Source: Betaproteobacteria bacterium (GTDB lineage: Bacteria; Pseudomonadota; Gammaproteobacteria; Burkholderiales; Thiobacillaceae). From it: 44,105 nucleotides of DNA. Both the position numbers and the translations under genes were made by a program. The notes under the pieces are model-generated. The model was given only the letters and a program-made list of their open reading frames with translations, made no database searches and was not told the origin of the DNA. Below, piece after piece: positions 2,557 to 19,479 of this stretch; positions within the stretch are counted from its first letter, which is position 1, and every line of letters begins with the position of its first letter. Location of the stretch: contig JAIFLB010000065.1 of assembly GCA_020049245.1 (NCBI GenBank), forward strand, positions 1 to 44,105, written 5' to 3'.

Positions 2557-3777
2557 TTGGACAATTTTCACATCCCCATTTCCGCCATCGGCATGGCGAA
2601 TCGAGACCTGCCCAGCGAGCAAGATCGGGGCGATCGTTTGCCGGTGATCGAGGTGTTGGCGGAAATCGCCAGCAGCATGAGTTCTGACGCCAATACGGAA
2701 CAGATGCTGATGCGTTTTCTTGAGATCATGGTGCGCATCTCACGCGCCAAGGCCGGCGCGGTGCGTGTGTTGACCGCCGATGGCGCGCATCTGCGCATGG
2801 CGGGTTCAATCGGCCTGAGTCCGGCGTTGATCGAGAAGGAACGTTATGTGCCGCTCGAATGCGGCATCTGCGGCAAGGCGACGTTGTCGCAAGCATCTCA
2901 GTCCGACAGCGTCATGGAGGTGTGCCAGAAACAGGTTCGCCATATCTATTTTGCGCAAAATTGCAGCACGGTTTACGCGGTGCCGTTGCGCCACAAGGGC
3001 AAGGTGCTTGGGGTTTACAACATCTTTCTGGATAACCCGGCGCCGCTGCCAGAAGACATTCGCTACCTGTTCAATTCGATTAGCGAACACCTGGGCATGG
3101 CGCTGGAAAACACGCGCCTGACGCGCGAGAACATGCGCATCTCGTTGATGAACGAACGCACCATGTTGGCGAATCAGATTCATGATTCGCTGGCGCAGAC
3201 GCTGGCCTACGCCAAGATGCGGTTGACCGTATTGAACGAGGCACTTGCTGAGCAGGATCAGGTGCGCGCCAATCGCTATCTGGGCGAGGTTGAAGAAGCG
3301 GTGGACCTGGCCTATTCGGAATTGCGCAATCTGATTACCCAATTCCGCGATCGCATCGATCCGCGTGGTCTGGTGCCGGCGTTGCAGGAGATGGCAGAAA
3401 GTTTCAGCAAGAAGGCGAATGCGGATGTTGATTTCCTGAATGTGGCGCAGGATGTGGTGCTGACGCCAGAGGAAGAAATTCAGGTGTTCCATATCATTCA
3501 GGAATCGCTTTACAACATCTGCAAGCATGCCCGTGCTCGCCATGTGGTGGTGACACTCGATCTGCACGAAAACGAGTATGTAGTGAATGTGGCGGATGAT
3601 GGTGTTGGCCTGCAGGGCACCGCACTGGCCAATATGGGCAAGAGTTTTGGCCTGACCATCATGCGCGAACGTGCCGCGAAACTGGGCGGTACGCTGACCA
3701 TCGAAAGTCGCGCAGCGGGTGGCACCATCGTGCGGTTGTGTTTCCCGGCGCGTCCGGGGGTTGAGGATCAAGCATGA
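2557..3777 (+). CDS. soluble GAF-domain sensor histidine kinase (NarX/HisKA_3 type)
   Basis: The N-terminal ~190 aa form a GAF-like domain with no TM segments. The H-box is ERTMLANQIHDSLAQTL (HisKA_3), and the C-terminus is HATPase_c (DDGVGL ... GLTIMRERA). The start is uncertain: TTG at 2557 or ATG at 2593. Confidence 0.8.
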   Translation: MDNFHIPISAIGMANRDLPSEQDRGDRLPVIEVLAEIASSMSSDANTEQMLMRFLEIMVRISRAKAGAVRVLTADGAHLRMAGSIGLSPALIEKERYVPLECGICGKATLSQASQSDSVMEVCQKQVRHIYFAQNCSTVYAVPLRHKGKVLGVYNIFLDNPAPLPEDIRYLFNSISEHLGMALENTRLTRENMRISLMNERTMLANQIHDSLAQTLAYAKMRLTVLNEALAEQDQVRANRYLGEVEEAVDLAYSELRNLITQFRDRIDPRGLVPALQEMAESFSKKANADVDFLNVAQDVVLTPEEEIQVFHIIQESLYNICKHARARHVVVTLDLHENEYVVNVADDGVGLQGTALANMGKSFGLTIMRERAAKLGGTLTIESRAAGGTIVRLCFPARPGVEDQA

Positions 3778-4457
3778 ATCCATTACCCGCTGAACAATTA
3801 CGCATTGTTCTGGTTGACGATCACACGCTGTTTCGCAAGGGCTTGGCGGAACTGCTGGAACGTGAGGGCGCGGTCAAGGTGTCGGCGATTACCGGCAACC
3901 CGACCGAGGTTGCCGGTTTGCTGCGCACTTACAGTCCGGATGTGTTGATCCTGGATTTGAATATCGGTGGCACGGATGGGATTCAGGTGATGCAGGAGCT
4001 GCGCGCCGATTCATTCATGCTGCCGGTGCTTTTGCTGACGGTGAGCGAGGCGGAAGAAGACATGGCTCGGGCTCTCCGCAACGGTGCCAATGGCTATCTG
4101 TTGAAGAGCATGGAGCCGGATGAATTGGTCGATGCGATCATCCGCGCAGCTCGGGGTGAAACCGTGGTGGCGCCGGCGATGACGGCAAAATTGGTGCGCA
4201 TGCTGGATGGCAAGAACAACAGCGCAACTTCGTTGCTGGAGTCATTGACCCAGCGCGAGCGGGAAATCCTCAAACATCTGGCCAAGGGCGAGAGCAACAA
4301 GGCGATTGCCCGCGAACTCGATATCAGCTACGACACGGTCAAGTTGCATGTGCGGCATATCCTGGCCAAGCTGAATCTGTCATCGCGGGTTGAGGCTGCC
4401 GTTTTTGCAGTCGAAAACAAGCTTTCGCCCGGCTTCGAGGTGCAACGCAAGAACTGA
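3774..4457 (+). CDS. NarL/LuxR-family response regulator (REC + LuxR HTH)
   Basis: The receiver domain shows LVDDH ... VLILDLNIGGTDG. The C-terminus has LTQREREILKHLAKGESNKAIARELDISYDTVKLHV. The ATGA start/stop overlap with the kinase gene indicates translational coupling. Confidence 0.88.
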   Translation: MNPLPAEQLRIVLVDDHTLFRKGLAELLEREGAVKVSAITGNPTEVAGLLRTYSPDVLILDLNIGGTDGIQVMQELRADSFMLPVLLLTVSEAEEDMARALRNGANGYLLKSMEPDELVDAIIRAARGETVVAPAMTAKLVRMLDGKNNSATSLLESLTQREREILKHLAKGESNKAIARELDISYDTVKLHVRHILAKLNLSSRVEAAVFAVENKLSPGFEVQRKN

Positions 4458-4486: not shown

Positions 4487-5392
4487 TCAGCCGCGCAGGT
4501 TCTGCAGGTGGTCGTGATAGCGAGCCCGGTAAAGCAGGCGGCGATGTTCCGGGCGGTCGGTAAAGCCCGTACGGGTGTGAAGCACGTTGTTGCAGATCAG
4601 GCCCATGCCGGGTTGTAGCTTGAGGCTGAAAACGCCGGCAGGCCGGCTTTCCAGTAATTCTTCCAGGGCTTTTAACGCCGCCTGAGTCGCTACGTCCTGC
4701 TTCCAGGCGATGCTCTTGGTGCGAGCGGTATAGCGCAGATGCAGATGGCCGTTGGCAACGCATAGGGCGGGGCCGGTTTCGTCGCCACGTGCGGTGCCAT
4801 GTTCATCTTCGCGGGCCGGGATGGTCATCGCATCCGTCGCCATCAGGGCACGAATATGCTCAGGATTGGCATCGCGCAGCGCGATATAGGCCAGTTCATG
4901 ATCGAGTAAATCGTTCTCGCCGCCGTCATCTGCTTCTCGCACGCAATGCAGCGTCATCGCGAAGATGCGCCGCTCGGGCGGGTTGTAGTAGCCATCGGTA
5001 TGCCAGCGGATGCGGTGATGTGTGTAGGGTATGAATTCTCCGCGCTTGCTGTTGCCAACCCCGCTGCCTTCGTCCTGTGGCGTCAGGCTGGAAATGCCGT
5101 CTTCGTCGGCTAGCCAGTTGGCATCGAGATGGGTCAGGCCGAACTGGGCGGAAAGTAGGCGTGGGCCGTTCTTGTCTTCGTTTTCGCCCATGCCGGTGGC
5201 ATAAATCGCCATGTTGGTCTTGGCGATGTGCTGCCAGAGCGCGGCATATTCGGCGTTGCTGAGTTGCTTCGGATCGCGCACAGTGACGATCAGGTCTTCG
5301 CCCCGGGGTGGATAATCGGCCAACTTGTCAGCCCGCCAGGAGGCGTAGCCAGCGGCGTTGTCAGGATGGAACGGGCTGTCAAGCGGGATCAT
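4487..5392 (-). CDS. TauD/TfdA-family Fe(II)/2-oxoglutarate dioxygenase-like protein
   Basis: It has the HxD motif in IRWHTDGYY and a distal His in NNVLHTRTGF, with a size (~300 aa) typical of the family. The substrate cannot be inferred. Confidence 0.6.
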   Translation of the reverse strand: MIPLDSPFHPDNAAGYASWRADKLADYPPRGEDLIVTVRDPKQLSNAEYAALWQHIAKTNMAIYATGMGENEDKNGPRLLSAQFGLTHLDANWLADEDGISSLTPQDEGSGVGNSKRGEFIPYTHHRIRWHTDGYYNPPERRIFAMTLHCVREADDGGENDLLDHELAYIALRDANPEHIRALMATDAMTIPAREDEHGTARGDETGPALCVANGHLHLRYTARTKSIAWKQDVATQAALKALEELLESRPAGVFSLKLQPGMGLICNNVLHTRTGFTDRPEHRRLLYRARYHDHLQNLRG

Positions 5393-5401
5393 CTGGCACT
5401 T

Positions 5402-5989
5402 TCAGGCGGGTTCTAATGGCGGGTAAAAACCGTCCATGTTTTTCTTGGCCATATCCATCATCGCCGGCACTTCAATTTCCATTAATTGATCCTGAATCCA
5501 GCTTTGATCGGATTTCTCCATGTCTTCCCGAATCATCAGGCTAAGGAAACGGGCGGGCTGGAAATTTGGTTTGCCATTGGGCAAAGTGAACTCGGCGAAC
5601 TCGGCGTAATCCTGCATTCGCTTGTTGAGCAGCTCGATATAGCCTTCCTGATAGTCATAATTCGGGTCGCGTTCGCCATCATTGAAATCGAGGATGTTCT
5701 GTTCCATCACTTCGGCCAGACGAATGCCGGTGGCACTGATCAGTTCCTGGCGCTGCTCGTCATCCAGGCGGTCGAACGCCAGACGATCCATGTAATGCAC
5801 CAGAAAACAGGTTAGTTCGGCAATGATCTTGAAGCCGCGTTGCGGTGTGATGATGTCGTAGTCGGCCTTGGATAGATTGTCGATTGCCTTGTCGGCAAGC
5901 CGCCACAGCATCGAGGCCATGACGGTGGCGACTTCCTCGGGCGAACGTTCGCCTTCCTTCTTGAACCAGGTGGTTTTGACGCGAAGCAA
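5402..5989 (-). CDS. hypothetical acidic protein (~195 aa)
   Basis: The ORF is long, with no family I recognise. The proposed TTG start at 5989 is preceded by GGAGA (5996-6000 on the complement) and lies 2 nt after the rhodanese stop. The annotated ATG at 6043 would overlap the rhodanese gene by 52 nt. Confidence 0.5.
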   Translation of the reverse strand: MLRVKTTWFKKEGERSPEEVATVMASMLWRLADKAIDNLSKADYDIITPQRGFKIIAELTCFLVHYMDRLAFDRLDDEQRQELISATGIRLAEVMEQNILDFNDGERDPNYDYQEGYIELLNKRMQDYAEFAEFTLPNGKPNFQPARFLSLMIREDMEKSDQSWIQDQLMEIEVPAMMDMAKKNMDGFYPPLEPA

Positions 5990-5991
5990 AG

Positions 5992-6840
5992 TTATTCTCC
6001 AGTCGCGACTGGCCGGGATGGATCGCGAATCCACTCGCTCCATGAGCCGGGATAAAGACGGGAACCGGGCAGACCGGCGATTTCCATGGCCAACAGGTTA
6101 TGGCAGGCGGTGACGCCTGAGCCGCAGGTGTGAATGACTTGCCAGGCGGGTCGGCCTTTCAGCATGGCCTGGAAGTTTTCACGTAATGCCTCAGGCGGCA
6201 AATAGGTGCCGTCGATATCAAGATTTTCGTCAAACGCCCAGTTGATCGAGCCGGGGATGTGTCCGGCAACCGGGTCTAGCGGTTCGAATTCGCCGGTGAA
6301 ACGGCGTTCCGGGCGCGCGTCGATGATCATTTGCTCGCCGGTTTTTACCGCATGCAGCACTTCGTCGGCTGACACGATCTGGGTCGGTTCCGGTAAACAG
6401 GCGCATCGGCCTTTAGCCAGTTCGGGTAAATCGGAGGTCAGTGGCCGCTTTTCGCGCTGCCATTTGGGAAATCCGCCATCCAGCAAGGCAACTGCGGGGT
6501 GACCCAGCCAGCGCAGCATCCACCAGGCGCGCACAGCCATGGCTCCGAAGCTGTCGTCATAAACAACGACCTGCTTGTTGACGCCAATACCCCAATTGCA
6601 AACCTTCTTGGCGAATTCTTCTGGATCAGGCAGCGGGTGGCGGCCGGTGGATTCGGTGATTTGCGTCGACAGATCCTCATCAAGATGGACATACCGAGCG
6701 CCGGGAATGTGGTTTTTCAGATAAGCCTGACGTCCGCCTTCGGGGTCGGTCAGGGTGAAGCGGCAATCAAGCACGATCCAGTTTGGGTCATCCAGATGCT
6801 GAGCCAGGTCTTCGGTACTTACGATGGTGTTGATGAACAT
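5992..6840 (-). CDS. sseA: two-domain rhodanese, 3-mercaptopyruvate sulfurtransferase type
   Basis: It has a tandem rhodanese architecture. The active-site loop CGSGVTAC in the C-terminal domain matches the CG[ST]GVTA signature of MST/SseA rather than the CRKGVTA signature of TST. I prefer the start at MFINTIVSTEDL (ATG 6840). Confidence 0.8.
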   Translation of the reverse strand: MFINTIVSTEDLAQHLDDPNWIVLDCRFTLTDPEGGRQAYLKNHIPGARYVHLDEDLSTQITESTGRHPLPDPEEFAKKVCNWGIGVNKQVVVYDDSFGAMAVRAWWMLRWLGHPAVALLDGGFPKWQREKRPLTSDLPELAKGRCACLPEPTQIVSADEVLHAVKTGEQMIIDARPERRFTGEFEPLDPVAGHIPGSINWAFDENLDIDGTYLPPEALRENFQAMLKGRPAWQVIHTCGSGVTACHNLLAMEIAGLPGSRLYPGSWSEWIRDPSRPVATGE

Positions 6841-6924
6841 GAGAGTGTGGAATCGGTTACGCGCTGTCGATAGGTGGAGAGAACTCGCCGCCACACCTGC
6901 GGCAGCGCGTAATTGCTTGCTAGA

Positions 6925-7257
6925 TTAGTAGCCGCCTTTGCCAAATGGCTTCGGCATGCCGGCAACCTTGGCGGATTGACGGTTGGGTTGCAGCGGGAAG
7001 AGTTCGTACAGCTTCTTCTTCCAGTCCACGCTGTCGTCTTCTTCGTCAAGCATGGCTACCATATTCCGGAAGTTGGGCGTGTGGCCGTCTTCCTGATAAC
7101 GCTCACGCATGAAGCGAACGACCTGCCAATGTTCATCCGTCAGGTTGATCTTTTCTGCAGCGGCAATAACTGGTACGACGTCATCACTGAAATTGGCTTC
7201 GACCAGAAAGCCGTCGTCGTCAGTCTCAAGTTCTTCGCCGTTAACGATATAACCCAT
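6925..7257 (-). CDS. DsrC/TusE-family protein lacking both conserved C-terminal cysteines
   Basis: It aligns by eye with the bona fide DsrC at 12118..12453 (EHWQVVRFMRERY vs SHWDVVNFLREYY; KLYELFP vs YLYELFP; AKVAGMPKP vs CKIAGLPKP). It ends ...SAKVAGMPKPFGKGGY and contains no Cys at all. A good RBS, AGGAGAAAACC, precedes the ATG. Confidence 0.78.
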   Translation of the reverse strand: MGYIVNGEELETDDDGFLVEANFSDDVVPVIAAAEKINLTDEHWQVVRFMRERYQEDGHTPNFRNMVAMLDEEDDSVDWKKKLYELFPLQPNRQSAKVAGMPKPFGKGGY

Positions 7258-7326: not shown

Positions 7327-7980
7327 TCAGTCGATTGCTACTTCCTTGATCGATTTATGCGGAATGAAGATTCCGCAGCCATAACCACGATGCAAACCAA
7401 GGCCACGTTCCTGCAGGATCATCGATTGCATCAAGTCGATATCGTGCAGCATCAGGCTGTAACCGCCAATTACCCTTTTGGGGATGTGCATTCTCTGAGC
7501 CTTGCCAGGGATAAGGCCAGCTTTTATGCCAATCTCTTCCATCAAGCCTCTGATTCCATTTAGAAAAAGTGCCTCATCCTCGGTGTCTACAGAAACAAAA
7601 TGTGAATACAGCGTGGCATATGGCGTCACCGCTTTTTCTTTCAAGTCGCCTATGTGCAGCTTTCCCGCACCAGGATCAATTTCCTTGCCAACCAGTTCAC
7701 GTGCGTCGGCAACGTGTTCAACCGGCATCCGCAAAACCAGCTTGACGCGGCGGTTGATCACCAGATTTTCATTGCGTCCACTCGGTGTCGCATGCACGGG
7801 ATGAATGCCTGCATTGGCTAGATCGCGCAGCCAGGGGAGGTGTCTGACAATCTCTTCGAACAGCGCATAACCATGATCGGCAGGAATTTCGAAGCCGGTC
7901 AGGTCGAATTGAAGGTCGGTGACCTTGGGTGTGTAGTTGAGTCGCTTCAGCGCCTCCCACTCAGCGTTGTACATGCGCAT
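7327..7980 (-). CDS. Cas6/Cmx6-like RAMP-superfamily protein (orphan, no CRISPR context)
   Basis: The N-terminus, DLQFDLTGFEIPADHGYALFEEIVRHLPWL, resembles the N-terminal signature I remember for type I-MYXAN Cas6/Cmx6. The C-terminal glycine-rich loop GLGLHRGYGCGIFIP resembles the RAMP G-loop, and the size is ~217 aa. The call rests on memory of the family and needs a profile or structure search. Confidence 0.45.
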   Translation of the reverse strand: MRMYNAEWEALKRLNYTPKVTDLQFDLTGFEIPADHGYALFEEIVRHLPWLRDLANAGIHPVHATPSGRNENLVINRRVKLVLRMPVEHVADARELVGKEIDPGAGKLHIGDLKEKAVTPYATLYSHFVSVDTEDEALFLNGIRGLMEEIGIKAGLIPGKAQRMHIPKRVIGGYSLMLHDIDLMQSMILQERGLGLHRGYGCGIFIPHKSIKEVAID

Positions 7981-7983
7981 GAA

Positions 7984-8262
7984 TCAACTTCCTTTCGAAG
8001 AGTCATCCGCATTAGCCAGCGGTGTGGCCCACTTTAGCATTTCATCGGCCCAGTACTTGGCGGTAACGGGATCGATATCGAAAACCGTGAAGCGAGCGCC
8101 GCGCTCTCGAATGCGTAAACGCAGCATCGGTGTGCCACCACCCTCATACAAGACTTCCTGGATTTCAATTTCTTGATTGCCAAAAGGGTTACGAAACTTC
8201 GCAATTGGATTTAGTTGGTTCATAATAAATAAGTATTTGGTGATCTGCTGATTATCTGACAT
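7984..8262 (-). CDS. hypothetical small protein (79-92 aa)
   Basis: This is the first ORF of the minus-strand operon, and its stop lies 3 nt upstream of the Cas6-like start (TGA TTC ATG). I recognise no family. The start is ambiguous (ATG 8262 or ATG 8223), and neither has a strong RBS. Confidence 0.4.
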   Translation of the reverse strand: MSDNQQITKYLFIMNQLNPIAKFRNPFGNQEIEIQEVLYEGGGTPMLRLRIRERGARFTVFDIDPVTAKYWADEMLKWATPLANADDSSKGS

Positions 8263-8486
8263 TTTTAGTCAGGTATAGACACATCCCTCAGGGTTATTTT
8301 GAACCTACCCGAAAGGATAGGTTCTGGATTACCCGAGTGAAATACCCGGTTACCCCTTCGGAATGATGGTTAGGATGATAAGTGCTCCCTAATATGCATG
8401 CACTCGTTCCGTATGGCGTTTGTCTGCGGGAAGGTGCTGTGAATTGTGACGACACCCTGTAGTTAAGACTTCAAGGAGATATACAG
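8263..8486. promoter_or_regulatory. divergent control region between dsrA and the minus-strand accessory operon
   Basis: This 224-nt gap lies between divergent operons, so it must carry both promoters. It contains an inverted repeat GAACCTA (8301-8307) / TAGGTTC (8318-8324) and three TACCC[GC] direct repeats (8330, 8343, 8351). A possible -35/-10 pair is TGGTTA (8367-8372) and TAATAT (8390-8395) with a 17-nt spacer. The dsrA RBS is AAGGAGA (8473-8479). The promoter hexamers are guesses. Confidence 0.5.
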
Positions 8487-9785
8487 ATGGCAAAACCAAT
8501 GCATGAAACGCCGAACCTGGACGAACTCGAGACCGGCCCCTGGCCCTCATTTGTCACCGGTCTGAAGCGTCTGGCAAAAGATAACGACATGATGGTTGAC
8601 CTGATGGGTCAACTGGAAACCTCCTACCAGACCAAATTTGGTTACTGGAAGGGTGGTACCGTGGGTGTTGTTGGTTACGGTGGTGGTGTTATTCCCCGTT
8701 TTACCGAACTGAAGGACGAGAACGGCGCTCCCCGTTTCCCCGAAGCTGCTGAATTCCACACCCTGCGCATCCAGCCGCCCGCTGGTATGCATTACACCTC
8801 GGACCTGCTGCGTCAGTTGTCCGATGCCTGGTTGGAGACCGGTGGTTCTGGTCTGATTGCTTTCCACGGCCAGTCTGGCGACATCATGTTCCAGGGTATC
8901 AAGACTGAGAATGTGCAAAAGGCCTTCGACAAGTTCAATGAAATGGGCTTCGACTTGGGCGGTGCTGGTCCTGCATTGCGTACCTCCATGTCCTGCGTCG
9001 GTGCGGCTCGTTGCGAAATGTCGTGTTATGACGAAGCCCGCGCTCTGCGGACAGTCATCAACAACAACCTGGACGACATGCATCGCCCGTCACTGCCTTA
9101 CAAGTTCAAGTTCAAGTTCTCCGGTTGCCCGAACGACTGTATGAACGCCATCCAGCGTTCTGACATGGCGACCATCGGCACCTGGCGTGACAACATGCGC
9201 GCTGACGAGAAGCTGGCACGTGAGTGGTATGCCGCTCACAGCATCGAAGACACCATCAACATGGTTGTCAATCACTGTCCGACCAAGGCTATCCAGCTGA
9301 AAAAGAATGATGGTGCTGTCGCGGCTGAAGGCGTCACCAAAGTTGCGATCTCTGACGATCATTGCCTGGAAATTGACAACCATAACTGCGTGCGTTGCAT
9401 GCACTGTCTGAACGTTATGCCGGGCGCATTGCTGCCAGGTAAAGACAAGGGTGTCACCATCCTGGTTGGCGGCAAGGGCGTGCTGAAGATCGGCGCTTCG
9501 ATGGGTACCGTTGTGATTCCGTTCATGAAGATGGAATCCGATGATGATTTCGAGCGTTTGAACGACCTATCCCGCAGCATCCTCGACTTCTTCGCAGAAA
9601 ATGCGCTGGAGCATGAGCGTACCGGCGAGATGATCGAGCGTATTGGTCTGGTCAATTTCCTCGAAGGTCTCGATATCGAAATTGATCCCAGCATGATCGT
9701 GCATCCGCGTACGAATCCGTACTTCCGTTCGGATGATTGGGATGAGGAAGCTGAAAAGTGGTTCGAACGTAAGGCTGCTGCTTAA
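8487..9785 (+). CDS. dsrA: reverse dissimilatory sulfite reductase, alpha subunit
   Basis: The N-terminus, LDELETGPWPSFVTGLKRL, is typical of DsrA. Siroheme/FeS Cys motifs and a ferredoxin-like insert (CVRCMHC) are present, and the gene heads the dsr cluster. Confidence 0.95.
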   Translation: MAKPMHETPNLDELETGPWPSFVTGLKRLAKDNDMMVDLMGQLETSYQTKFGYWKGGTVGVVGYGGGVIPRFTELKDENGAPRFPEAAEFHTLRIQPPAGMHYTSDLLRQLSDAWLETGGSGLIAFHGQSGDIMFQGIKTENVQKAFDKFNEMGFDLGGAGPALRTSMSCVGAARCEMSCYDEARALRTVINNNLDDMHRPSLPYKFKFKFSGCPNDCMNAIQRSDMATIGTWRDNMRADEKLAREWYAAHSIEDTINMVVNHCPTKAIQLKKNDGAVAAEGVTKVAISDDHCLEIDNHNCVRCMHCLNVMPGALLPGKDKGVTILVGGKGVLKIGASMGTVVIPFMKMESDDDFERLNDLSRSILDFFAENALEHERTGEMIERIGLVNFLEGLDIEIDPSMIVHPRTNPYFRSDDWDEEAEKWFERKAAA

Positions 9786-9809
9786 CTCGGCTGCTGTGTA
9801 ATTACGAAG

Positions 9810-9841
9810 TTCCGTGGCGCTCTGGAAAGCGCGTCACGGAA
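9810..9841 (+). other. intercistronic stem-loop after dsrA
   Basis: TTCCGTGGCGC (9810-9820) pairs with GCGCGTCACGGAA (9829-9841), giving 11 bp with a 2-nt bulge and an 8-nt loop. It is followed by AAAAAGTTTT. Confidence 0.5.
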
Positions 9842-9875
9842 AAAAGTTTTCCGATCTTATTAGTTGGAGAAAAGT

Positions 9876-10949
9876 ATGGCTGAAAGGACTCATGAAACCA
9901 TCGAATCTGGCGCGCCGGATCCGATGCCCTACATGCACCCCGTAATGAAAGACAACTACGGCAAGTGGGTTTACCACTCACATCCGAAGCCGGGTGTTCT
10001 GTATCACCGTGCCGAAAACGGTGCTGAAGTGTGGACGGTCAAAGCGGGTACGCAACGCCAGATGGACCACTACACCATCCTCAAGTTGGCTGATATCGCT
10101 GATCAGTTTGCAGATGGTTATTTGCGCTTCACCACGCGTGCCAACATTGAGTATATGGTTACCGATAACAGCAAGGTCGAGCCGCTGATCAAGGCGCTGA
10201 CTGACAATGGTTTCCCGGTCGGTGGCACTGCCAACTCGGTTTCCATGATTGCGCATACCCAGGGCTGGTTACATTGCGACATTCCGGGTACGGATGCTTC
10301 CGGTGCGGTTAAAGCGCTGATGGATGAGTTGTATGACGAATTCATCAAGTGCGAAATGCCTAACCGCGTCAAGCTTTCAACCTCTTGTTGTGAAATCAAC
10401 TGCGGTGGTCAAGCGGATATTGCGATCGTGATACAGCATACCAAGCCGCCAAAGATCAACCATGATCTGGTCGCCAACGTCTGCGAACGTCCTTCCGTTG
10501 TTGCACGCTGCCCGGTTGCTGCGATCCGTCCGGCTCTGGTTAATGGGAAGCCTTCGCTGGAAGTTGACGAGAAGAAGTGCATTTGTTGCGGTGCCTGTTT
10601 CCCCCCGTGTCCCCCGATGCAGATCAACGACCCCGAGCACTCCAAGTTTGCAATCTGGGTCGGTGGCAAGAATTCCAACGCACGTTCGCGTCCGACCTTC
10701 CACAAGCTGGTTGCTTCCGGCATCCCGAACAACCCACCGCGGTGGCCTGAAGTCAGTGAGATCGTTAAAACCATTCTTGGTGCATACAAGGCAGATGGTC
10801 GTCCTTGGGAACGCATGAATGACTGGATCGACCGTATCGGTTGGCCTGCATTCTTCGAGAAAACTGGTCTGCCCTTCACCAAGTATCACATCGATAACTG
10901 GCGAGGTGGTCGTAGCAGCTTGAACGCATCTGCTCATATCCGCTTCTAA
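9876..10949 (+). CDS. dsrB: reverse dissimilatory sulfite reductase, beta subunit
   Basis: It is DsrB-like throughout, with the CxxCxxC ferredoxin insert (KKCICCGAC). I prefer the ATG at 9876, preceded by GGAGAAAAGT, over the TTG at 9864. Confidence 0.95.
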   Translation: MAERTHETIESGAPDPMPYMHPVMKDNYGKWVYHSHPKPGVLYHRAENGAEVWTVKAGTQRQMDHYTILKLADIADQFADGYLRFTTRANIEYMVTDNSKVEPLIKALTDNGFPVGGTANSVSMIAHTQGWLHCDIPGTDASGAVKALMDELYDEFIKCEMPNRVKLSTSCCEINCGGQADIAIVIQHTKPPKINHDLVANVCERPSVVARCPVAAIRPALVNGKPSLEVDEKKCICCGACFPPCPPMQINDPEHSKFAIWVGGKNSNARSRPTFHKLVASGIPNNPPRWPEVSEIVKTILGAYKADGRPWERMNDWIDRIGWPAFFEKTGLPFTKYHIDNWRGGRSSLNASAHIRF

Positions 10950-10957
10950 TCCACTTT

Positions 10958-10976
10958 CCCGGGATCAAGTCCCGGG
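10958..10976 (+). other. intercistronic stem-loop after dsrB
   Basis: CCCGGGA (10958-10964) and TCCCGGG (10970-10976) form a perfect 7-bp stem with a 5-nt loop, 9 nt after the dsrB stop. Confidence 0.45.
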
Positions 10977-11014
10977 TGTGGTCGAAACCGATATTCGGAG
11001 ATAGGGATATTTAA

Positions 11015-11374
11015 ATGAAAATCGGCATTATGGTAAGTGAAGGGCCTTACAACCATCAGGCAAGCGACACGGCTTATCTGTTTGCGCGTAATGCCATTGA
11101 AAAGGGTCATTCCGTTCCGCGCGTGTTTTTCTATCACGATGGCGTAAATAACTCGACCAAGTTGACTCAGCCTCCTCAAGATGACCGCAATGTGGTGAAT
11201 CGCTGGTCGAAGCTGGCGGAAGATCATGGTGTTGACTTGGTGGTCTGCGTAGCTGCGGGCATGCGTCGCGGAATTACGGATGACATTCTGGCACCTGGTT
11301 TCCGTATTTCGGGTCTGGGCCAATTGGTTGAAGCCGGCATCCAGTGCGATCGCCTGGTGACTTTCGGCGACTAA
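11015..11374 (+). CDS. dsrE: sulfurtransferase DsrE (DsrEFH complex)
   Basis: It belongs to the TusD/DsrE family, with the active-site Cys in the context LVVCVAAGMRRG. Its position after dsrB fits. Confidence 0.9.
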   Translation: MKIGIMVSEGPYNHQASDTAYLFARNAIEKGHSVPRVFFYHDGVNNSTKLTQPPQDDRNVVNRWSKLAEDHGVDLVVCVAAGMRRGITDDILAPGFRISGLGQLVEAGIQCDRLVTFGD

Positions 11375-11384
11375 GGGGATAACG

Positions 11385-11786
11385 ATGAGCGACATGATGG
11401 ATGACATGGACGAAGGCGGCGAAGGCGTCGTCAAGAAATTCATGTTCGTCAACCGCAAAGCGCCCCACGGCACGATCTATGCCTTGGAAGGTCTGGAAGT
11501 TGTGCTGATTTCGGCTGCTTTCGATCAGGATGTGAGCATGGTGTTCGTGGATGACGGCGTTTATGAGTTGATCAAGGGCGTCAACACCAAAGGTATCGAA
11601 GTCAAGGATTTCTCCAAGACCTATCGTGCGCTTGAAGGTTATGACATCGAAAAGCTGTATGTTGAAAAGGCATCAATGGATGCTCGCGGCCTCACTGAAG
11701 ATGATTTGATCGTCGATGTGACCGTGCTCGACAGCGCCGAGATGGCTAATCTCATGGCTGAACAAGACGTCGTGATCAGCTACTGA
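11385..11786 (+). CDS. dsrF: sulfurtransferase subunit DsrF
   Basis: It is TusC/DsrF-like (KFMFVNRKAPHGTIYALEGLEVVL) and sits between dsrE and dsrH. Confidence 0.85.
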   Translation: MSDMMDDMDEGGEGVVKKFMFVNRKAPHGTIYALEGLEVVLISAAFDQDVSMVFVDDGVYELIKGVNTKGIEVKDFSKTYRALEGYDIEKLYVEKASMDARGLTEDDLIVDVTVLDSAEMANLMAEQDVVISY

Positions 11787-11797
11787 GGGAGACGAAC

Positions 11798-12097
11798 ATG
11801 CTGCATATCGTGAATAAATCGGCTACAGAACGTAATTCGCTGGAAAGCGCCTTGCGGATGGCCACAAAGGGTTCTGCCGTGTTGCTGATTGAGGATGCTG
11901 TCTATGCAGCAACTCAGGGTAGCGTGGCGGCGGCGAAAATCAAATCGGCTATGGCCGATGTTCAGATTTATGCCTTGGGTCCTGATCTGGATGCGCGTGG
12001 TATGTCTTCGCGCGTTTTGGACGGAGTTAAAGTTGTTGATTATGGCGGTTTTGTGGACCTCGTTACCGAGCACAACAGCTGCCAATCCTGGTTGTAA
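11798..12097 (+). CDS. dsrH: sulfurtransferase subunit DsrH
   Basis: It is TusB/DsrH-like (MLHIVNKSATERNSLESAL ... LLIEDAVYAA) and lies in the expected position. Confidence 0.85.
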   Translation: MLHIVNKSATERNSLESALRMATKGSAVLLIEDAVYAATQGSVAAAKIKSAMADVQIYALGPDLDARGMSSRVLDGVKVVDYGGFVDLVTEHNSCQSWL

Positions 12098-12117
12098 TTT
12101 TTTTAAAGGAGTTCGCT

Positions 12118-12453
12118 ATGCCTATGGTTGAAGTTGCCGGCAAGAGTTTTGAGGTTGATGAGGAAGGCTATCTGACCAACCTGAACGATTGGAACCAGGA
12201 TATCGCTGAGTATCTGGCCAAGGAAGAAAAGGTTGAAATGACCGAGAGTCACTGGGACGTGGTCAACTTCCTGCGTGAATACTACGACGAGTATCAAATT
12301 GCTCCCGCCGTTCGCGTTCTGACCAAAGCTGTGGCCAAGAAACTCGGGCCTGAAAAAGGAAACAACAAGTATCTGTATGAGTTGTTCCCTTACGGACCCG
12401 CCAAGCAAGCCTGCAAAATCGCAGGTCTGCCGAAACCGACCGGATGTATCTAA
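12118..12453 (+). CDS. dsrC: DsrC, the sulfur-carrier substrate protein of DsrAB
   Basis: The C-terminal arm is canonical, ...PAKQACKIAGLPKPTGCI, with both conserved cysteines. The RBS AAAGGAG lies upstream. Confidence 0.95.
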   Translation: MPMVEVAGKSFEVDEEGYLTNLNDWNQDIAEYLAKEEKVEMTESHWDVVNFLREYYDEYQIAPAVRVLTKAVAKKLGPEKGNNKYLYELFPYGPAKQACKIAGLPKPTGCI

Positions 12454-12472
12454 TCGTTCCCGTCTGAACGAT
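12453..12472 (+). other. stem-loop 1 directly after dsrC
   Basis: ATCGTTC (12453-12459) and GAACGAT (12466-12472) form a perfect 7-bp stem with a 6-nt loop that overlaps the last base of the dsrC stop codon (12451-12453). Confidence 0.4.
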
Positions 12473-12475
12473 AAA

Positions 12476-12500
12476 CTTGACGGGCTAGCCGCCCGTCAAG
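12476..12500 (+). terminator. stem-loop 2 after dsrC (possible partial terminator or mRNA stabiliser)
   Basis: CTTGACGGGC (12476-12485) and GCCCGTCAAG (12491-12500) form a perfect GC-rich 10-bp stem with a 5-nt loop. No T-tract follows, so it is more likely an attenuator or stability element than a full terminator. Confidence 0.45.
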
Positions 12501-12571
12501 TCAGTTGCAAATAGAGTTTATCCAGCAATGCTGGAAAGCAATGATTTTGATCTGCCAACGCAGAGGAACGG

Positions 12572-13309
12572 ATGACATCGTTAACCGTTATATACACGGG
12601 CTTAATGTATTTCGCGACCATCATTCTGATTGTCGGAATTGCTTACCGAATTTATGAGTACAGCCGGACACCGGCTCCTCTTGTGATACCTACTACGCCA
12701 GCGCCAACGACAAATAGTGGCGTAGTTCTTCGCATGGCACGTGAAGTTGTTTTGTTTGAATCGTTGTTCAAATCAAATAAGTGGATTTGGCTCTTCGGCT
12801 GGTTGTTCCATGTTGGACTTGCTTTAGTTCTGTTACGCCATATTCGTTATTTCCAAGAGCCCGTGTGGTTCTGGGTGGAGTTTATTCAGCCTTTTGGTAA
12901 ATATGCTAGTTTTATGATGATTGCTGGATTGGCTGGGCTCTGGGCGCGTCGTTTTCTGGTTGATCGCGTACGCTATATTTCCACGCCTTCCGACCATTTG
13001 ATGTTGGCTTTGTTAGTCGCGATCGGCATGTCAGGTGCAATGATGACTTTTGTCACGCATACAGACATTGTTGCGTTGAAGGCTTTTGCGCTTGGTTTGG
13101 TTGTATTTGATTTACAACCTGTGCCAGAAGACCCGCTTCTGTTGATCCATCTTGGATTAGTTGCCTTGTTGATGATTATTTTTCCGGTCAGTAAGTTATT
13201 GCATGCACCCGGTATTTTCTTCAGTCCAACAAGAAACCAAAAGGATGATCCACGTACCACCCGTCACATTGCGCCCTGGGCTGCAGCGTTGGAGCGTGAC
13301 AAGATCTGA
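12572..13309 (+). CDS. dsrM: DsrM, membrane dihaem cytochrome b (NarI-like)
   Basis: It is a polytopic hydrophobic protein of ~245 aa with conserved His in the TM helices, positioned before dsrK. Confidence 0.85.
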   Translation: MTSLTVIYTGLMYFATIILIVGIAYRIYEYSRTPAPLVIPTTPAPTTNSGVVLRMAREVVLFESLFKSNKWIWLFGWLFHVGLALVLLRHIRYFQEPVWFWVEFIQPFGKYASFMMIAGLAGLWARRFLVDRVRYISTPSDHLMLALLVAIGMSGAMMTFVTHTDIVALKAFALGLVVFDLQPVPEDPLLLIHLGLVALLMIIFPVSKLLHAPGIFFSPTRNQKDDPRTTRHIAPWAAALERDKI

Positions 13310-13383
13310 GCAAGGTTGCTTTGCCTGCTTCAGAATCCTTTTCAGCTAGAGTCAATCACGGAAACAAGAGTTAAGGAGCCAAC

Positions 13384-14907
13384 GTGGCTGTTGCCGAGTT
13401 CGTAATTCCCGAGCTGACTGAATATACGGTCGTCCCCAAAATCAATCCGGGTGCGATGGAGAAGGTCAAATCGTTTGTCGCGCCTCAAGGCCCTCAAGAA
13501 TACTTGGGATACCCCTGGGAATTGGGCGCCGACTGGAAAGAGCGTGCCATCGACAAGATGGGTGACTTGCTGGGCAAGTATCGTTCACTGCGTGTATTTA
13601 TGGATGCCTGCGTACATTGTGGCGCCTGCACAGATAAATGCCATTATTTCCTGGGGACAGCAGATCCGAACAATATGCCGGTTGCACGCCAGGATTTGAT
13701 GCGTAAAGTCTACCGGCGCTACTTTACTTTGCCGGGCAAGATTGCTCCATGGTTAGTCGGTGCCGAAGACCTGACTGAAGACGTGCTGAATCAGTGGTAC
13801 ACCTATTATCACCAGTGCTCGGAATGTCGTCGTTGCTCGGTGTATTGTCCTTATGGAATCGACACTGCTGAAGTCACCATGGCGGGTCGTGAAATTCTGA
13901 ACTATGTAGGTGTAGGTCAGAAATACTCCAACGAAATTCTGGTCAAGGTACAGAAAATCGGGAACAACCTCGGCTTGCCTGGTCCCGCCCTGGAAGACAC
14001 GCTACTTGGCTTGGAAGAGGATATCGAGGCGGATACCGGCGTCCCAGTCAAGATGCCACTCGACGTAGTCGGTGCCGAAATTATGCTGGTGACGCCATCA
14101 GCCGACTTCTTCTCCGAGCCCCATGTTGAATCATTGATCGGCTATGCCAAAGTATTCCATGCTGCAGGCGTATCTTGGACTTTATCGAGCAAAGCGTCTG
14201 AGGCAGGAAATTTCGGCTTGTTTAATGGCAGTTACGAGACCATGCAGAAAGTTGCCATGCGGATTCGTGATGCCGCGCTGGAGCTTGGATGCAAACGCAT
14301 TATTGTCGGCGAATGCGGTCACGCTTGGCGGGTTGCCTATAGCTTCTGGAATACTCTGACTGGTATTGGTTACGGCGGGGAAGACCCGTTTTCCAAGAAA
14401 CTTCAGCAGCAATTGGATAACCGGTATCCGCAACCGATGCATATATGCGAATACACCTGGGATTTGATTGAAAGCGGTGTACTTAAATTCGACAAGTCTC
14501 TGAACGACAATCGTGTCATTACATTCCACGATTCCTGCAACGTCGCTCGTGGATCTCGAATGGGTACCGAACCCGGGGGACAGTTCACCATCCCAAGAAA
14601 CATCATCAGGGCCGTGGCAAACAACTTCCAGGACATGCCCGACGATACTATCGGAGAAGGTACTTTCTGTTGCGGCGGCGGCGGCGGCTTGTTGACCGAT
14701 GACTTGATTGAAGTCCGCGTAAAAGGCGCATTACCTCGCATGAATGCCTACAACAGTGTTGTAAAAGGCAATCAGGTCAATTTCCTGGCGTTGATATGCG
14801 CGATTTGCAAGGCCCAATTTACCAAGGTGTTCCCGTATTACGGATTTGATCGTGGTCAGGTCGGTGGCGTGCACCAGCTCGTCAGTACGGCCATCAAGCT
14901 GGATTGA
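13384..14907 (+). CDS. dsrK: DsrK, HdrD-like iron-sulfur protein with a CCG domain
   Basis: It carries two ferredoxin motifs, CVHCGACTDKC and CSECRRCSVYCP, plus a C-terminal CCG motif (GTFCCGGGGG). The GTG start is preceded by AAGGAG. Confidence 0.9.
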   Translation: MAVAEFVIPELTEYTVVPKINPGAMEKVKSFVAPQGPQEYLGYPWELGADWKERAIDKMGDLLGKYRSLRVFMDACVHCGACTDKCHYFLGTADPNNMPVARQDLMRKVYRRYFTLPGKIAPWLVGAEDLTEDVLNQWYTYYHQCSECRRCSVYCPYGIDTAEVTMAGREILNYVGVGQKYSNEILVKVQKIGNNLGLPGPALEDTLLGLEEDIEADTGVPVKMPLDVVGAEIMLVTPSADFFSEPHVESLIGYAKVFHAAGVSWTLSSKASEAGNFGLFNGSYETMQKVAMRIRDAALELGCKRIIVGECGHAWRVAYSFWNTLTGIGYGGEDPFSKKLQQQLDNRYPQPMHICEYTWDLIESGVLKFDKSLNDNRVITFHDSCNVARGSRMGTEPGGQFTIPRNIIRAVANNFQDMPDDTIGEGTFCCGGGGGLLTDDLIEVRVKGALPRMNAYNSVVKGNQVNFLALICAICKAQFTKVFPYYGFDRGQVGGVHQLVSTAIKLD

Positions 14908-14921
14908 TTTTGATACTGAGC

Positions 14922-14939
14922 GGTACGGTATGCCGTACC
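14922..14939 (+). other. intercistronic stem-loop after dsrK
   Basis: GGTACGG (14922-14928) and CCGTACC (14933-14939) form a perfect 7-bp stem with a 4-nt loop. Confidence 0.4.
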
Positions 14940-15000
14940 AATGAAATTTTAGGTGCAGTTAGAAAATGCGCCGTGTGCAATTGACGATAGGAGAGCGAAG

Positions 15001-16962
15001 ATGGCTGTCACTTCAAAAGATGTAAAGAAAACCGAGGGTTTGTCCTGGCGTCGGTACAAAGAAGGCGAAACGAGCAAGAACTATCGCCGTTCACAGGAGC
15101 TGATCTTCCAAGCTAGCTGGACCCATAAATGTCCTGAATATGTTCTCTCAACACCGCCTTGCCAGGGATCTTGCCCCGCAGGGGAGGACATTCGCGGCTA
15201 TCTGAACATTGCGCGCGGAATTGAAAAACCGCCGGTTGGCATGACCTGGCAGGAATTCGCTTTCCGTCGCATTACTGATGCAAATCCGTTCCCGGCTGTC
15301 ATGGGCCGTGTTTGTCCGGCGCCTTGTGAGTCCGGTTGTAACCGCAACCAGGTGGAAGACCATGTCGGCATCAACTCGGTTGAGCACTTCATTGGCAACT
15401 GGGGCCTCAACAACAGCATGAAGTTTGATGCGGTCAGTGTTGCTCCCTCCGGCAAAAAAGTTGCCATCATCGGTGGTGGTCCTGCCGGTCTGGCTGCCGC
15501 GTATCAATTAGCCAAAAAGGGTCATGCCTGTACCATTTTTGATGATCACGCCGAACTTGGCGGCATGATGCGCTACGGTATTCCCGGTTTCCGCACACCA
15601 CGCAATGTGCTTGATGGTGAAATCCAACGCATTCTGGATCTTGGCGTTGAAACCCGTTTGAACTGCCGTATTGGCAGCGATATCACCATGGATCAAATCG
15701 AAAAAGACTTCGATGCCATCTTCATGGGTCTGGGTGCTCAATCTGGACGTGCTTTGCCGGTTCCCGGTGCGGAAGCCCCCAATTGCGTAACCGCAATGTC
15801 GTTCTTGCGCGCCTTCAACGAAGGTCGTCTGCAACACGTTGGTAGCAAGGTTGTTGTTATTGGTGGTGGCGATACCTCGATTGACGTTGCAACGGTAGCG
15901 CGTCGTCTGGGCAAAATCACCAATGTGACCGACAAGGATTTGCCGGAACATGTATTGGCTGGTCATACCGCACATGATGTCAGTTCAATTGCAGCCCGTC
16001 AGGGCGCTGAAGTTGTACTGGTTTCTCGTGCCACGATCGACAAGATGGCCGCCAACAAGACCGAAATCGAGCATGCGCAGACCGAAGGTATTGAAATCAT
16101 TGGTGGCGTCACGCCGGTTGCCGTAGTGGTTGGTGCTGATGGCCGTGCAACCGCGCTGCGGGTTGCCGAGTTTGTCATGGAAGGCAATAACACCAAGATC
16201 ATCGAAGGCACCGAGCGCGATCTGCCGGCCGATCTGGTGGTCTCCGCGATTGGTCAGGCAGTTGATTTCAGTGGTCTTGAAGGCTTCAACAACAACAACG
16301 GTTTGATGAAGGCGGACAAAAATTACCGCTTCCCTGGCAAGCCACATGTGTTTGTTGGCGGTGACGTTCTTCGCCCGCACTTGTTGACGACCGCAATCGG
16401 CCATGCCCGCATCGCAGCCGATGGTATCGATGCCTTCTTGAAGAGTGAAGAACTCGACAAGCGCCCGAAAGTTGACGTGCATCACTGGGATATGGTTCGC
16501 AAATGGGTCGAAACCGGTCATGAATACAAAGAACTGCATGGCCAGAATTGGGGTACATCTGCTGAAAAGGGTCTTTTGCACAACTTCGAGGACCGTTCAC
16601 AGAAATATGTGATCCCGTCTACCGAAATGTTCCTTGGCCATTTCATGAACACCCCGCGTCTGAAGCGTCATATCGTTCACCTGGATAAGGAATCAGCCCT
16701 GGGTAACTTTGATGACCGCCTGGGTCAGCTGGATGAAAAGGAAGTGGTTGCTGAAGCCAAACGCTGCATGTCTTGCGGACTATGCTTCGAATGTGACAAC
16801 TGCGTCATCTACTGCCCACAGACTGCCGTGTTCAAGGTCAAGAAGAAAGATGACCCGACGACTGGCCGTTATGTGGATACCGACTATGGCAAGTGCATCG
16901 GCTGTCACATCTGTGCTGACGTGTGCCCGACTGGTTATATCGTCATGGGTATGGGCGAGTAA
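15001..16962 (+). CDS. dsrL: DsrL, NAD(P)H:acceptor oxidoreductase (GltD-like with a C-terminal ferredoxin domain)
   Basis: It has the dinucleotide-binding motifs VAIIGGGPAGLAAA and VVVIGGGDTSID. The C-terminus has 2x[4Fe-4S] motifs, CMSCGLCFECDNC and CIGCHICADVCP. The ATG at 15001 follows GGAGAGCGAAG. Confidence 0.9.
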   Translation: MAVTSKDVKKTEGLSWRRYKEGETSKNYRRSQELIFQASWTHKCPEYVLSTPPCQGSCPAGEDIRGYLNIARGIEKPPVGMTWQEFAFRRITDANPFPAVMGRVCPAPCESGCNRNQVEDHVGINSVEHFIGNWGLNNSMKFDAVSVAPSGKKVAIIGGGPAGLAAAYQLAKKGHACTIFDDHAELGGMMRYGIPGFRTPRNVLDGEIQRILDLGVETRLNCRIGSDITMDQIEKDFDAIFMGLGAQSGRALPVPGAEAPNCVTAMSFLRAFNEGRLQHVGSKVVVIGGGDTSIDVATVARRLGKITNVTDKDLPEHVLAGHTAHDVSSIAARQGAEVVLVSRATIDKMAANKTEIEHAQTEGIEIIGGVTPVAVVVGADGRATALRVAEFVMEGNNTKIIEGTERDLPADLVVSAIGQAVDFSGLEGFNNNNGLMKADKNYRFPGKPHVFVGGDVLRPHLLTTAIGHARIAADGIDAFLKSEELDKRPKVDVHHWDMVRKWVETGHEYKELHGQNWGTSAEKGLLHNFEDRSQKYVIPSTEMFLGHFMNTPRLKRHIVHLDKESALGNFDDRLGQLDEKEVVAEAKRCMSCGLCFECDNCVIYCPQTAVFKVKKKDDPTTGRYVDTDYGKCIGCHICADVCPTGYIVMGMGE

Positions 16963-16970
16963 TTTAAAGG

Positions 16971-18187: not shown

Positions 18188-18190
18188 TTT

Positions 18191-19408: not shown

Positions 19409-19443
19409 CAAAGTTTGAATTTGCAAACCGCATCAAGCAAAAA

Positions 19444-19479
19444 GCAAAAAGCCGACAAAATTAGTCGGCTTTTTGCTTT
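19444..19479 (+). terminator. Rho-independent terminator after dsrP
   Basis: GCAAAAAGCCGAC (19444-19456) and GTCGGCTTTTTGC (19464-19476) form a perfect 13-bp stem with a 7-nt loop. The descending arm runs into TTTTTGCTTT. The A-tract on the left arm would allow it to work in both directions. Confidence 0.75.

Follow-up and report, generated by a model that had tools for sequence, protein, structure and literature searches.

Members of Cas protein families are known from several settings outside adaptive immunity, namely CRISPR-associated transposons, type IV systems, Cas1-solo proteins and casposons, and standalone repeat-derived regulatory RNAs. In those exapted cases an effector complex or a mobile-element context is kept. 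The nearest described relatives of the protein treated here are Cas6 proteins of type I-MYXAN and type I-B systems, represented by the Cas6 subunit of PmcCAST, a type I-B CRISPR-associated-transposon Cascade (8FCJ_B in the PDB), and by Cmx6 of the cyanobacterial plasmid pSYLB. The DNA analysed here (the window) is a stretch of 44,105 nucleotides from a betaproteobacterium of the Thiobacillaceae (contig JAIFLB010000065.1 of assembly GCA_020049245.1). It encodes, at 7327..7980 on the minus strand, a Cas6-like protein of 217 amino acids (aa), hereafter Cas6L, which resembles these relatives in its fold, its glycine-rich loop and the residues K80, R84 and R198. Unlike them, it has neither a cas operon nor an array, lies beside dsrAB and is coupled to a gene of the DUF6967 family. 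A lone Cas6 homologue in a core energy-metabolism locus also differs from the exapted cases listed above, and no parallel to it turned up in the literature that was searched. Both its sequence and its predicted fold make Cas6L a true member of the Cas6/Cmx6 family, and we hold with high confidence that it is an exapted, non-CRISPR, dsr-linked protein. The protein family is known; its dsr context and its partners are new. A literature search, which took in recent papers on dsr evolution and on CRISPR classification and had subscription-only papers outside its range, found no description of a module made of Cas6L, DUF6967 and dsr genes.

Cas6L and its CRISPR-linked relatives

A sequence-only reading of the window had proposed two open reading frames here, and both exist as stated, at 7327-7980 and 7984-8262 of the minus strand. 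The N-terminal stretch DLQFDLTGFEIPADHGYALFEEIVRHLPWL and the C-terminal stretch GLGLHRGYGCGIFIP, in which that reading had seen a likeness to Cas6/Cmx6, are both present in the 217-aa translation, and the profile scores are far above chance. Cas6L matches PF09559 'Cas6' from end to end with 166.9 bits (E=6.7e-49; cutoff 26.7) and the NCBIfam model TIGR02807 'type I-MYXAN Cas6/Cmx6' with 139.4 bits, the curated cutoff being 98.85. The closest sequence in the PDB is 8FCJ_B (E=1.6e-14), and the glycine-rich loops of the two proteins align. An AlphaFold2 model built from a 53-sequence alignment (predicted local distance difference test, pLDDT, 90.1; predicted template-modelling score, pTM, 0.84) shows two ferredoxin-like RAMP (repeat-associated mysterious protein) domains followed by the C-terminal glycine-rich loop. 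In a Foldseek search the model found 8fcj_B first, with a TM score of 0.83 and a root-mean-square deviation of 1.7 A, and the next ~40 matches were Cas6/Cse3 endoribonucleases. The profile and structure searches proposed earlier as a check therefore found a Cas6 fold; its absence had been named as grounds for giving up the assignment, and those grounds are lacking because the model superimposes on Cas6 structures. An exact-sequence look-up of the window protein returned no match on record.

The glycine-rich loop of Cas6L, GLGLHRGYGCG, aligns with that of genuine Cmx6, and both proteins keep K80, L81, R84, R198, G193, G195 and the GCG. Among 89 unique dsr-linked sequences, R78 and R84 are invariant or nearly so. 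The C-terminus carries the clade-specific sequence P-H208-K-S, in which H208, K209 and S210 are invariant and stand beside C202. At the start of helix 1 lies a position whose histidine is presumably catalytic, as in Cas6b enzymes. It is His36 in the window protein and His in the Synechocystis Cmx6, and it is Asn in PmcCAST Cas6; across the 89 sequences it is His in 62, Asn in 17, Tyr in six and Ser in four, a variability that may set Cas6L apart from the type I-MYXAN and I-B enzymes. Because this position is not conserved, the activity selected in Cas6L is, judging from the alignment, probably binding rather than cutting.

Tandem Repeats Finder and direct-repeat scans detected no CRISPR-type array in the window. 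When its 44 proteins were searched with PADLOC and Pfam, Cas6-type models matched Cas6L only, and a generic 2-oxoglutarate 'CAS-associated' model scored once, probably on the TauD-like protein described below. We also assembled 99 related loci by three routes (genome contigs, exact-protein look-ups and a metagenome scan) and annotated them with hidden Markov models built from the window's own proteins; in the counts that follow, the denominators are the loci with enough flanking sequence, which for dsrA means at least 1.5 kb upstream. Genes for cas3, cas8, cas7, cas5, cas1, cas2 and cas4 were found neither in the window nor in the flanks of these 99 loci, and none of the 99 (845 kb) has a CRISPR-like array. 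The earlier description of an orphan, with no array or other cas genes in the window, is thus borne out by repeat scans, PADLOC and Pfam alike.

Genuine CRISPR-linked relatives do exist. A tblastn search against annotated plasmids yielded Cmx6 proteins of 25-28% identity on cyanobacterial plasmids. On pSYLB of Synechocystis PCC 6714, cas6/cmx6 stands first in an operon and is followed by cas3, cmx8, an open reading frame recorded as 'Cas8' (by its position, a Cas7/DevR-type subunit), cas5, cas4/cas1 and cas2; the repeat of the associated array is GTGTCCAAACCATTGATGCCGTAAGGCGTTGAGCAC, which carries a hairpin with a short G:C-rich stem and a 4-nt loop. Of two near relatives found among representative sequences, one (P0329, 35% identity) belongs to a full operon of Cas6, Cas3, DevT, DevR, Cas5, Cas4/Cas1 and Cas2, and the other (P0288, 36% identity) is preceded by a WYL regulator; both lack the C-terminal motif of the Cas6L clade. 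The CRISPR-linked relatives (25-36% identity) share with Cas6L the loop G.G..R..GCG.F.P. In the alignment LPW, NRR and the C-terminal P-H-K-S-I occur in the sulfur-linked proteins only, and the P-H-K-S signature is found in none of the four context-verified CRISPR-linked relatives. At the genuine CRISPR-linked Cas6 loci that were examined there is no DUF6967 partner.

The nearest 50%-identity clusters and reference sequences, 154 sequences in all, were placed in a neighbour-joining tree, and the P-H-K type accounts for 139 of them. The four sequences whose CRISPR linkage is verified by context cluster together, away from all the context-verified sulfur-linked ones. This tree is crude and midpoint-rooted, and gives no direction of descent between the sulfur-linked and the CRISPR-linked Cas6 proteins. 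In short, by every contextual test applied Cas6L falls outside CRISPR-Cas systems.

Cas6L might nevertheless be a genuine CRISPR RNA-processing Cas6 that serves in trans an array elsewhere in the genome. Trans-acting Cas6 proteins have a precedent in type III systems (PMC12669027), the score exceeds the TIGR02807 equivalog cutoff, and the window copy has His36. Against this stand a dsr linkage that is invariant and vertical across deep divergence, the lack of cas genes and arrays at all 99 loci, and the lack of DUF6967 at genuine CRISPR loci. The P-H-K-S signature is missing from all four context-verified CRISPR-linked relatives, which cluster apart, and Cas6L keeps 60% identity across families, unlike fast-evolving and sporadic cas genes. 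A matching CRISPR locus elsewhere in the genome is unlikely because the dsr linkage is invariant, and we regard service in trans as extremely improbable.

Linkage to dsr and the DUF6967 partner

The genes of a reverse-Dsr operon, dsrABEFHCMKLJOPN (8487..20915, plus strand), run divergently from Cas6L, beginning with dsrA (8487-9785) and dsrB (9864-10949). The same divergent placement of dsrA was seen in all 64 informative loci, in which the Cas6L proteins are 34-95% identical to that of the window. DUF6967 lies immediately upstream of Cas6L in at least 80 of 89 loci. Downstream of Cas6L an uncharacterised protein of ~200 aa was found in 60/62 loci, a DsrC-family protein in 76/86, a rhodanese in 57/70 and a TauD-like dioxygenase in 51/59. 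Because this dsr context is conserved, Cas6L is not a stray CRISPR gene, and the suggestion of a domesticated copy next to dsr is not only strongly supported but extends well beyond the window. A clade of 197-aa Cas6L proteins (L015 7376-7858; similar in L041-L049) has an unusually long TusA-domain protein (160 aa) in place of the DsrC-like protein and the rhodanese, and keeps the 200-aa protein.

Homologue searches returned hundreds of proteins, nearly all of 217 aa, from Thiobacillus, Hydrogenophilales, Gallionellaceae and Sulfurimicrobium-type bacteria. In an exhaustive search of representative sequences one 50%-identity cluster (329 bits) contained the whole clade of the window; the runner-up scored 172 bits, in a family of ~1050 clusters. 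The named sulfur-linked members are all annotated in public databases as 'type I-MYXAN CRISPR-associated protein Cas6/Cmx6', and the equivalog cutoff of TIGR02807 does not separate them from true Cas6. This model therefore mislabels hundreds of protein clusters systematically, and the label 'CRISPR-associated' is misleading for them. For CRISPR biology they represent a large, ancient and vertically inherited branch of Cas6 that works outside CRISPR-Cas, and a natural experiment in the repurposing of an RNA-hairpin endonuclease. The organisms concerned are environmentally dominant sulfur oxidisers of fresh water and wastewater.

The second frame, which the sequence-only reading had called a 92-aa protein of no known kind, is open from 7984 to 8262 as stated, and its product falls within the Pfam family DUF6967 (PF22295), scoring 90.9 bits (cutoff 27). 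The match covers residues 14-80 of the 92-aa frame, homologues are mostly 79-80 aa long, and the extension upstream of Met14 is interrupted by a stop or a frameshift in close relatives, its underlying DNA being conserved as a promoter-like element. For these reasons the real protein probably has 79 aa and starts at Met14 (ATG at 8223-8221; gene 7984..8223, minus strand).

Its stop codon is separated from the start of Cas6L by three nucleotides (TGA-TTC-ATG, 7978..7990, minus strand), as read from the sequence, and an AAGGAAG ribosome-binding site just ahead of this junction sits within the 3' end of DUF6967. The arrangement in other clades is either a 4-nt overlap or a spacing of at most 21 nt. 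A mirror-tree comparison of 36 loci gave r = 0.89 between the distances of Cas6L and DUF6967, and a partial r of 0.60 after controlling for the distances of DsrA, which served as a proxy for species phylogeny. The corresponding partial r with Cas6L was -0.04 for the DsrC-like protein, -0.06 for the rhodanese and 0.21 for the ~200-aa protein. The proposal that Cas6L and the small upstream gene form a two-protein unit is thus supported by translational coupling, by their being kept together in ~90% of loci, and by specific co-evolution.

DUF6967 has 29 invariant positions, including KFRNP.GNQEIE and RLRIRERGARF, the latter an invariant strand with alternating arginines. In its AlphaFold2 model (pLDDT 89.1) DSSP assigned strands to residues 3-11, 17-25, 33-40 and 46-50 and a helix to 52-75, that is, four antiparallel beta strands and then a helix, as in PC4, PUR-alpha and Whirly proteins. 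The best Foldseek matches in the PDB were the bacterial PC4 homologue BPSL1147 (5a4n), PUR-alpha repeats and Whirly (E-values 0.12-0.5, probability 0.98-1.0, TMq 0.46-0.63). PC4, PUR-alpha and Whirly all bind single-stranded DNA or RNA. The topology and the alternating-arginine strand are like theirs; unlike them, DUF6967 has no detectable sequence similarity to these proteins and its nucleic-acid binding is predicted. A PDB sequence-profile search with DUF6967 gave nothing, and a search of the viral structures in BFVD was uninformative. The model thus suggests a PC4/PUR-like fold, as a lead rather than as proof. To our knowledge, no PC4-like protein has been described with a Cas6 homologue as its partner gene.

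DUF6967 is not universal. It is lost or degraded in three clade-3 loci (L063, L083 and L090), and in the marine clade and the class that is not adjacent to dsr its place is taken by other small proteins and by proteins of 233-245 aa. In such clades without DUF6967 (L074 5040-6000; L093, L095 and L096; L101 592-1489) a protein of ~61-70 aa precedes Cas6L, with the motif ...LYLSE.L.Q...TFD...DVKP..PDTP..WED.LE.AF. The 233-245-aa proteins before Cas6L show 40% identity between clades and belong to no known family.

The control region upstream of dsrA and the possible role of the pair

Between DUF6967 and dsrA lies a shared control region of 263 nt (8224..8486), which was aligned over 15 loci and whose architecture is kept across distant clades. 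ACCTACCC occurs in 43 and CATCATTC in 40 of 61 non-redundant loci, against a maximum of seven for any 8-mer in shuffled sequences. Read in the sense of dsrA, the order is a palindrome or hairpin, HP2 (ACCTACCC-N4-GGRTAGGT), then TACCC elements, GGAATGATGG and a TAnnAT box. HP2 is the palindrome gaACCTACCC-gaaa-GGATAGGTtc on the plus strand (8301..8324; family consensus CTACCC-N4-GG(N)GTAG). At least 44 of the 61 loci have it; its stem hardly varies, its 4-nt loop is unconstrained, and the clade-2 copies carry a bulge of one base. With its short G:C-rich stem and 4-nt loop it is like the hairpin in the genuine I-MYXAN repeat. Three TACCC elements follow at 8330-8334, 8343-8347 and 8351-8356, and then the near-invariant GGAATGATGG at 8360-8369; TACYC/GRGTA pentamers average 3.8 per 90 nt as against 0.32 in shuffles, a twelve-fold excess. 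The GGAATGATGG anchor is kept in 40/61 loci, with a constant 21 nt between it and the TAnnAT box, which in the window is TAATAT (8390..8395, plus strand) and which recurs in all clades as a candidate -10 box of dsrA. The region includes a CCATCATTC/TACCC segment.

On the other strand a GATAAT -10-like box (ATTATC at 8251-8256 on the plus strand) overlaps a CYGAC-N7-GTCRG palindrome (8256-8272), the two together (8251..8272, minus strand) being a candidate promoter and operator of DUF6967-Cas6L. A promoter scan gave nothing useful, the sequence by itself left the sigma-70 assignment ambiguous in both directions, and these boxes, assigned by hand, are putative. This is probably the first sequence-level view of dsr promoter architecture in betaproteobacterial sulfur oxidisers. 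Rfam searches came back empty, both for the whole window (gathering thresholds) and for the control region (E<=1). A clade-2 block, AAGCCC-loop-GGGTTGAAAT, was considered as a structured RNA because of its likeness to the end of a CRISPR repeat and was rejected, RNAalifold giving, for 18 sequences, -1.9 kcal/mol on one strand and -1.2 kcal/mol on the other and no real covariation.

HP2 occurs once in the window and once per locus elsewhere, and 618 kb of related loci contain 59 matches inside control regions and one nominally outside. Further copies that might hint at a regulon were found neither in the window nor, apart from that one nominal match, in the 618 kb. The lineages that bear DUF6967 have HP2 and the anchor, and the marine and non-dsr clades, being devoid of DUF6967, have neither; the exceptions are the clade-3 loci L063, L083 and L090, which have no intact DUF6967 and retain both.

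The sequence-only reading had looked for RNA substrates elsewhere, in the stem-loops that punctuate the dsr operon. Such stem-loops are present at 9786-9863 (dsrA/B), 10950-11014 (dsrB/E), 12454-12571 (dsrC/M), 14908-14952 (dsrK/L) and 19409-19499 (dsrP/N), the last being terminator-like, with a 16-bp stem and then a T run. That Cas6L cleaves or stabilises those of dsrA/B, dsrB/E, dsrC/M and dsrK/L has some appeal, since stable hairpins do exist, as at dsrA/B (-25.5 kcal/mol) and dsrC/M, and in Allochromatium the dsr transcripts are known to differ in abundance (cited in PMC3397948). However, no common sequence was found among the dsr intergenic hairpins, or between them and HP2, whereas both sequence and shape determine the specificity of Cas6 enzymes, and elements of the HP2 type are absent from the dsr operons across the 618 kb. 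The proposal that Cas6L processes these stem-loops is accordingly not upheld: the lack of shared sequence, unlike a Cas6 substrate, rules against them as a common substrate, and we consider cleavage or stabilisation of them very improbable.

Our preferred reading, held tentatively and at somewhat less than even confidence, is that the exapted Cas6 and DUF6967 form a nucleic-acid-binding unit dedicated to dsr, regulatory or processing in function, for which HP2 is the best candidate target in the lineages bearing DUF6967. Cas6L would have left CRISPR-Cas and become fixed in the reverse-Dsr locus of betaproteobacterial sulfur oxidisers (Thiobacillus, Hydrogenophilales and Gallionellaceae relatives). 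Made together, Cas6L and DUF6967 would act as a single unit, which would recognise some element, possibly HP2, of the control region shared with dsrA or of the transcript of that region, and would control or process the expression of both the dsr operon and its own sulfur-transfer operon. We favour such a unit because the RNA-binding hallmarks of Cas6 are kept, because the co-evolving partner has a predicted binding fold, and because the pair, beside a conserved control region, is placed as divergently transcribed regulators typically are. From these features we infer nucleic-acid binding by the pair, a target within the control region and a regulatory outcome.

Several observations weigh against this preferred reading. 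Nucleic-acid binding by either protein is a prediction from models, and the Foldseek matches of DUF6967 have weak E-values (0.1-0.5). The CYGAC-N7-GTCRG palindrome, which is conserved in clade 1, shows all four combinations of its arms, which is the behaviour of DNA half-sites. The stems of HP2 are too invariant for covariation analysis, and a test of G.U against C.A mismatches was split, the window, L003 and L078 favouring the Cas6L-sense strand and L039 and L012 the other; apart from HP2, RNAalifold found no consensus structure in the conserved blocks of the control region. HP2 is also missing in some clades that have Cas6L beside dsrA or away from dsr, and because of these clades it cannot be a universal ligand of Cas6L. 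The other genes of the operon, for sulfur transfer and a dioxygenase, suit a role in metabolism no less than one in regulation. Finally, a conventional factor of the NarL type may read the control region, with Cas6L unconnected to it. The TACCC elements resemble the NarL-family heptamer TACYYMT, and a GAF/HisKA_3 sensor kinase and a NarL-family response regulator (2557..4457, plus strand; the regulator at 3774-4457) are encoded 3 kb away, convergent with the Cas6L module. This pair of genes is found also in the Thiobacillaceae loci L009-L012 and not in L014 or L016.

A narrower form of the preferred reading, which we think unlikely as it stands, is that a CRISPR-independent Cas6 and a PC4-like partner make up a ribonucleoprotein switch that reads the single HP2 hairpin (CUACCC-N4-GGGUAG), in the leader or promoter region common to dsrA and their own operon, and sets the expression of dsr. 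If HP2 is the ligand of Cas6L, a single repeat-like hairpin would act in regulation, akin to the group of standalone repeat-derived regulatory RNAs. Should such a switch exist, a Cas6 endoribonuclease would for the first time be seen exapted to regulate a core energy-metabolism operon, and most proteins called 'type I-MYXAN Cas6/Cmx6' (139 of the 154 in our tree) would not be CRISPR-associated.

Downstream genes and other features of the window

Immediately downstream of Cas6L lies a gene for a DsrC-family paralogue (6925..7257, minus strand), which matches PF04358 with 107.6 bits and TIGR03342 with 85.4 bits. Like DsrC/TusE it fits the profile over its full length and keeps the C-terminal arm ...GLPKP.G...; unlike them it has no cysteine, and so lacks both functional ones, the penultimate Cys and the Cys 10 residues upstream, and it ends in ...PKPFGKGGY. 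The penultimate cysteine is strictly conserved in DsrC/TusE (PMC3397948). Among the partner DsrC paralogues of related loci, 76/77 lack the C-terminal cysteines and end in GKGGY, with the consensus ...GL(P/T)xP(F/Y)GKGGY, whereas the DsrC copies of the dsr operon all (38/38) have the canonical end ...CKIAGLPKPTGC(I/V). A terminal Gly-Gly-Tyr on the flexible arm of DsrC suggests a decoy arm or a site of modification. The reverse-Dsr pathway thus gains three conserved uncharacterised players, namely Cas6L, DUF6967 and the GKGGY paralogue of DsrC, as well as the conserved dsrA control region, and the module supplies concrete genes and DNA or RNA elements for the genetically tractable Thiobacillus.

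The remaining genes of the operon, all on the minus strand, encode a two-domain rhodanese with profile matches to 3-mercaptopyruvate sulfurtransferase (5992..6894), the conserved protein of no known family (5402..6043; ~195-213 aa across the 60 of 62 loci that have it) and a TauD/TfdA-family Fe(II)/2-oxoglutarate dioxygenase (4487..5392; PF02668, 63.3 bits). The protein at 5402..6043 has no significant match in Pfam or NCBIfam. It is more constant across loci than the rhodanese or TauD. Its longest open reading frame shares 52 nt with the end of the rhodanese gene, and for many homologues the alignment begins only at residue 18-20; because of both, its true start probably lies further downstream.

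With such neighbours Cas6L could be an accessory of sulfur trafficking at the level of proteins, with no action on RNA, the Cas6 fold being reused as a scaffold, chaperone or enzyme. Its partners would be the GKGGY paralogue, the rhodanese or TusA, the ~200-aa protein and the TauD-like dioxygenase, and its role the loading, modifying or gating of DsrAB/DsrEFH, in which the paralogue might, for instance, serve as a decoy DsrC arm. The GKGGY paralogue does follow Cas6L in 76/86 loci, and the pairing persists in L100 and L101, which have no adjacent dsrAB. The rest of the operon consists of sulfur-transfer and oxygenase proteins, a new active site could be made up of the invariant H208, K209 and S210 next to C202, the catalytic-histidine position is not conserved, and HP2 is missing from some Cas6L clades. 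Other features are poorly explained in this way: the glycine-rich loop with R198, K80 and R84 has been retained under strong selection, the coupled and co-evolving DUF6967 has a predicted nucleic-acid-binding fold, and, once phylogeny is allowed for, the DsrC-like partner does not co-evolve with Cas6L (partial r = -0.04). We judge such a protein-level role to be rather unlikely.

Another reading is a role in RNA modification. Cas6L would present a stem-loop of tRNA or mRNA to its TusE-like, rhodanese/TusA and TauD-like partners, by analogy with the relay TusA -> TusBCD -> TusE -> MnmA -> tRNA. Proteins of the DsrC/TusE family do act with TusA and TusBCD in the synthesis of tRNA 2-thiouridine (PMC3397948), and the module joins an RNA-binding fold, a TusE-like protein, a rhodanese or TusA and a dioxygenase. 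But the TusE-like partner has no cysteine and cannot carry a persulfide, the module contains neither an MnmA-type PP-loop ATPase nor another RNA-modifying catalytic domain, and the tie to the dsrA promoter region in 64/64 loci is left unexplained. We consider such a role quite improbable.

Beyond the dsr operon the window holds a dsrR-like gene, cysG and housekeeping genes. The dsrR-like protein (20953-21342, plus strand) has an IscA fold (PF01521) and ends in a tail rich in Gly and Cys, GGGCGSGGGGGGGCGSGGCGTGGGCGSSN, whose coding sequence is a 15-21-nt tandem repeat at 21247-21323. In the gap between the convergent response-regulator and TauD-like genes, ACGCAAAAACTG is present in three tandem copies (4445-4480).

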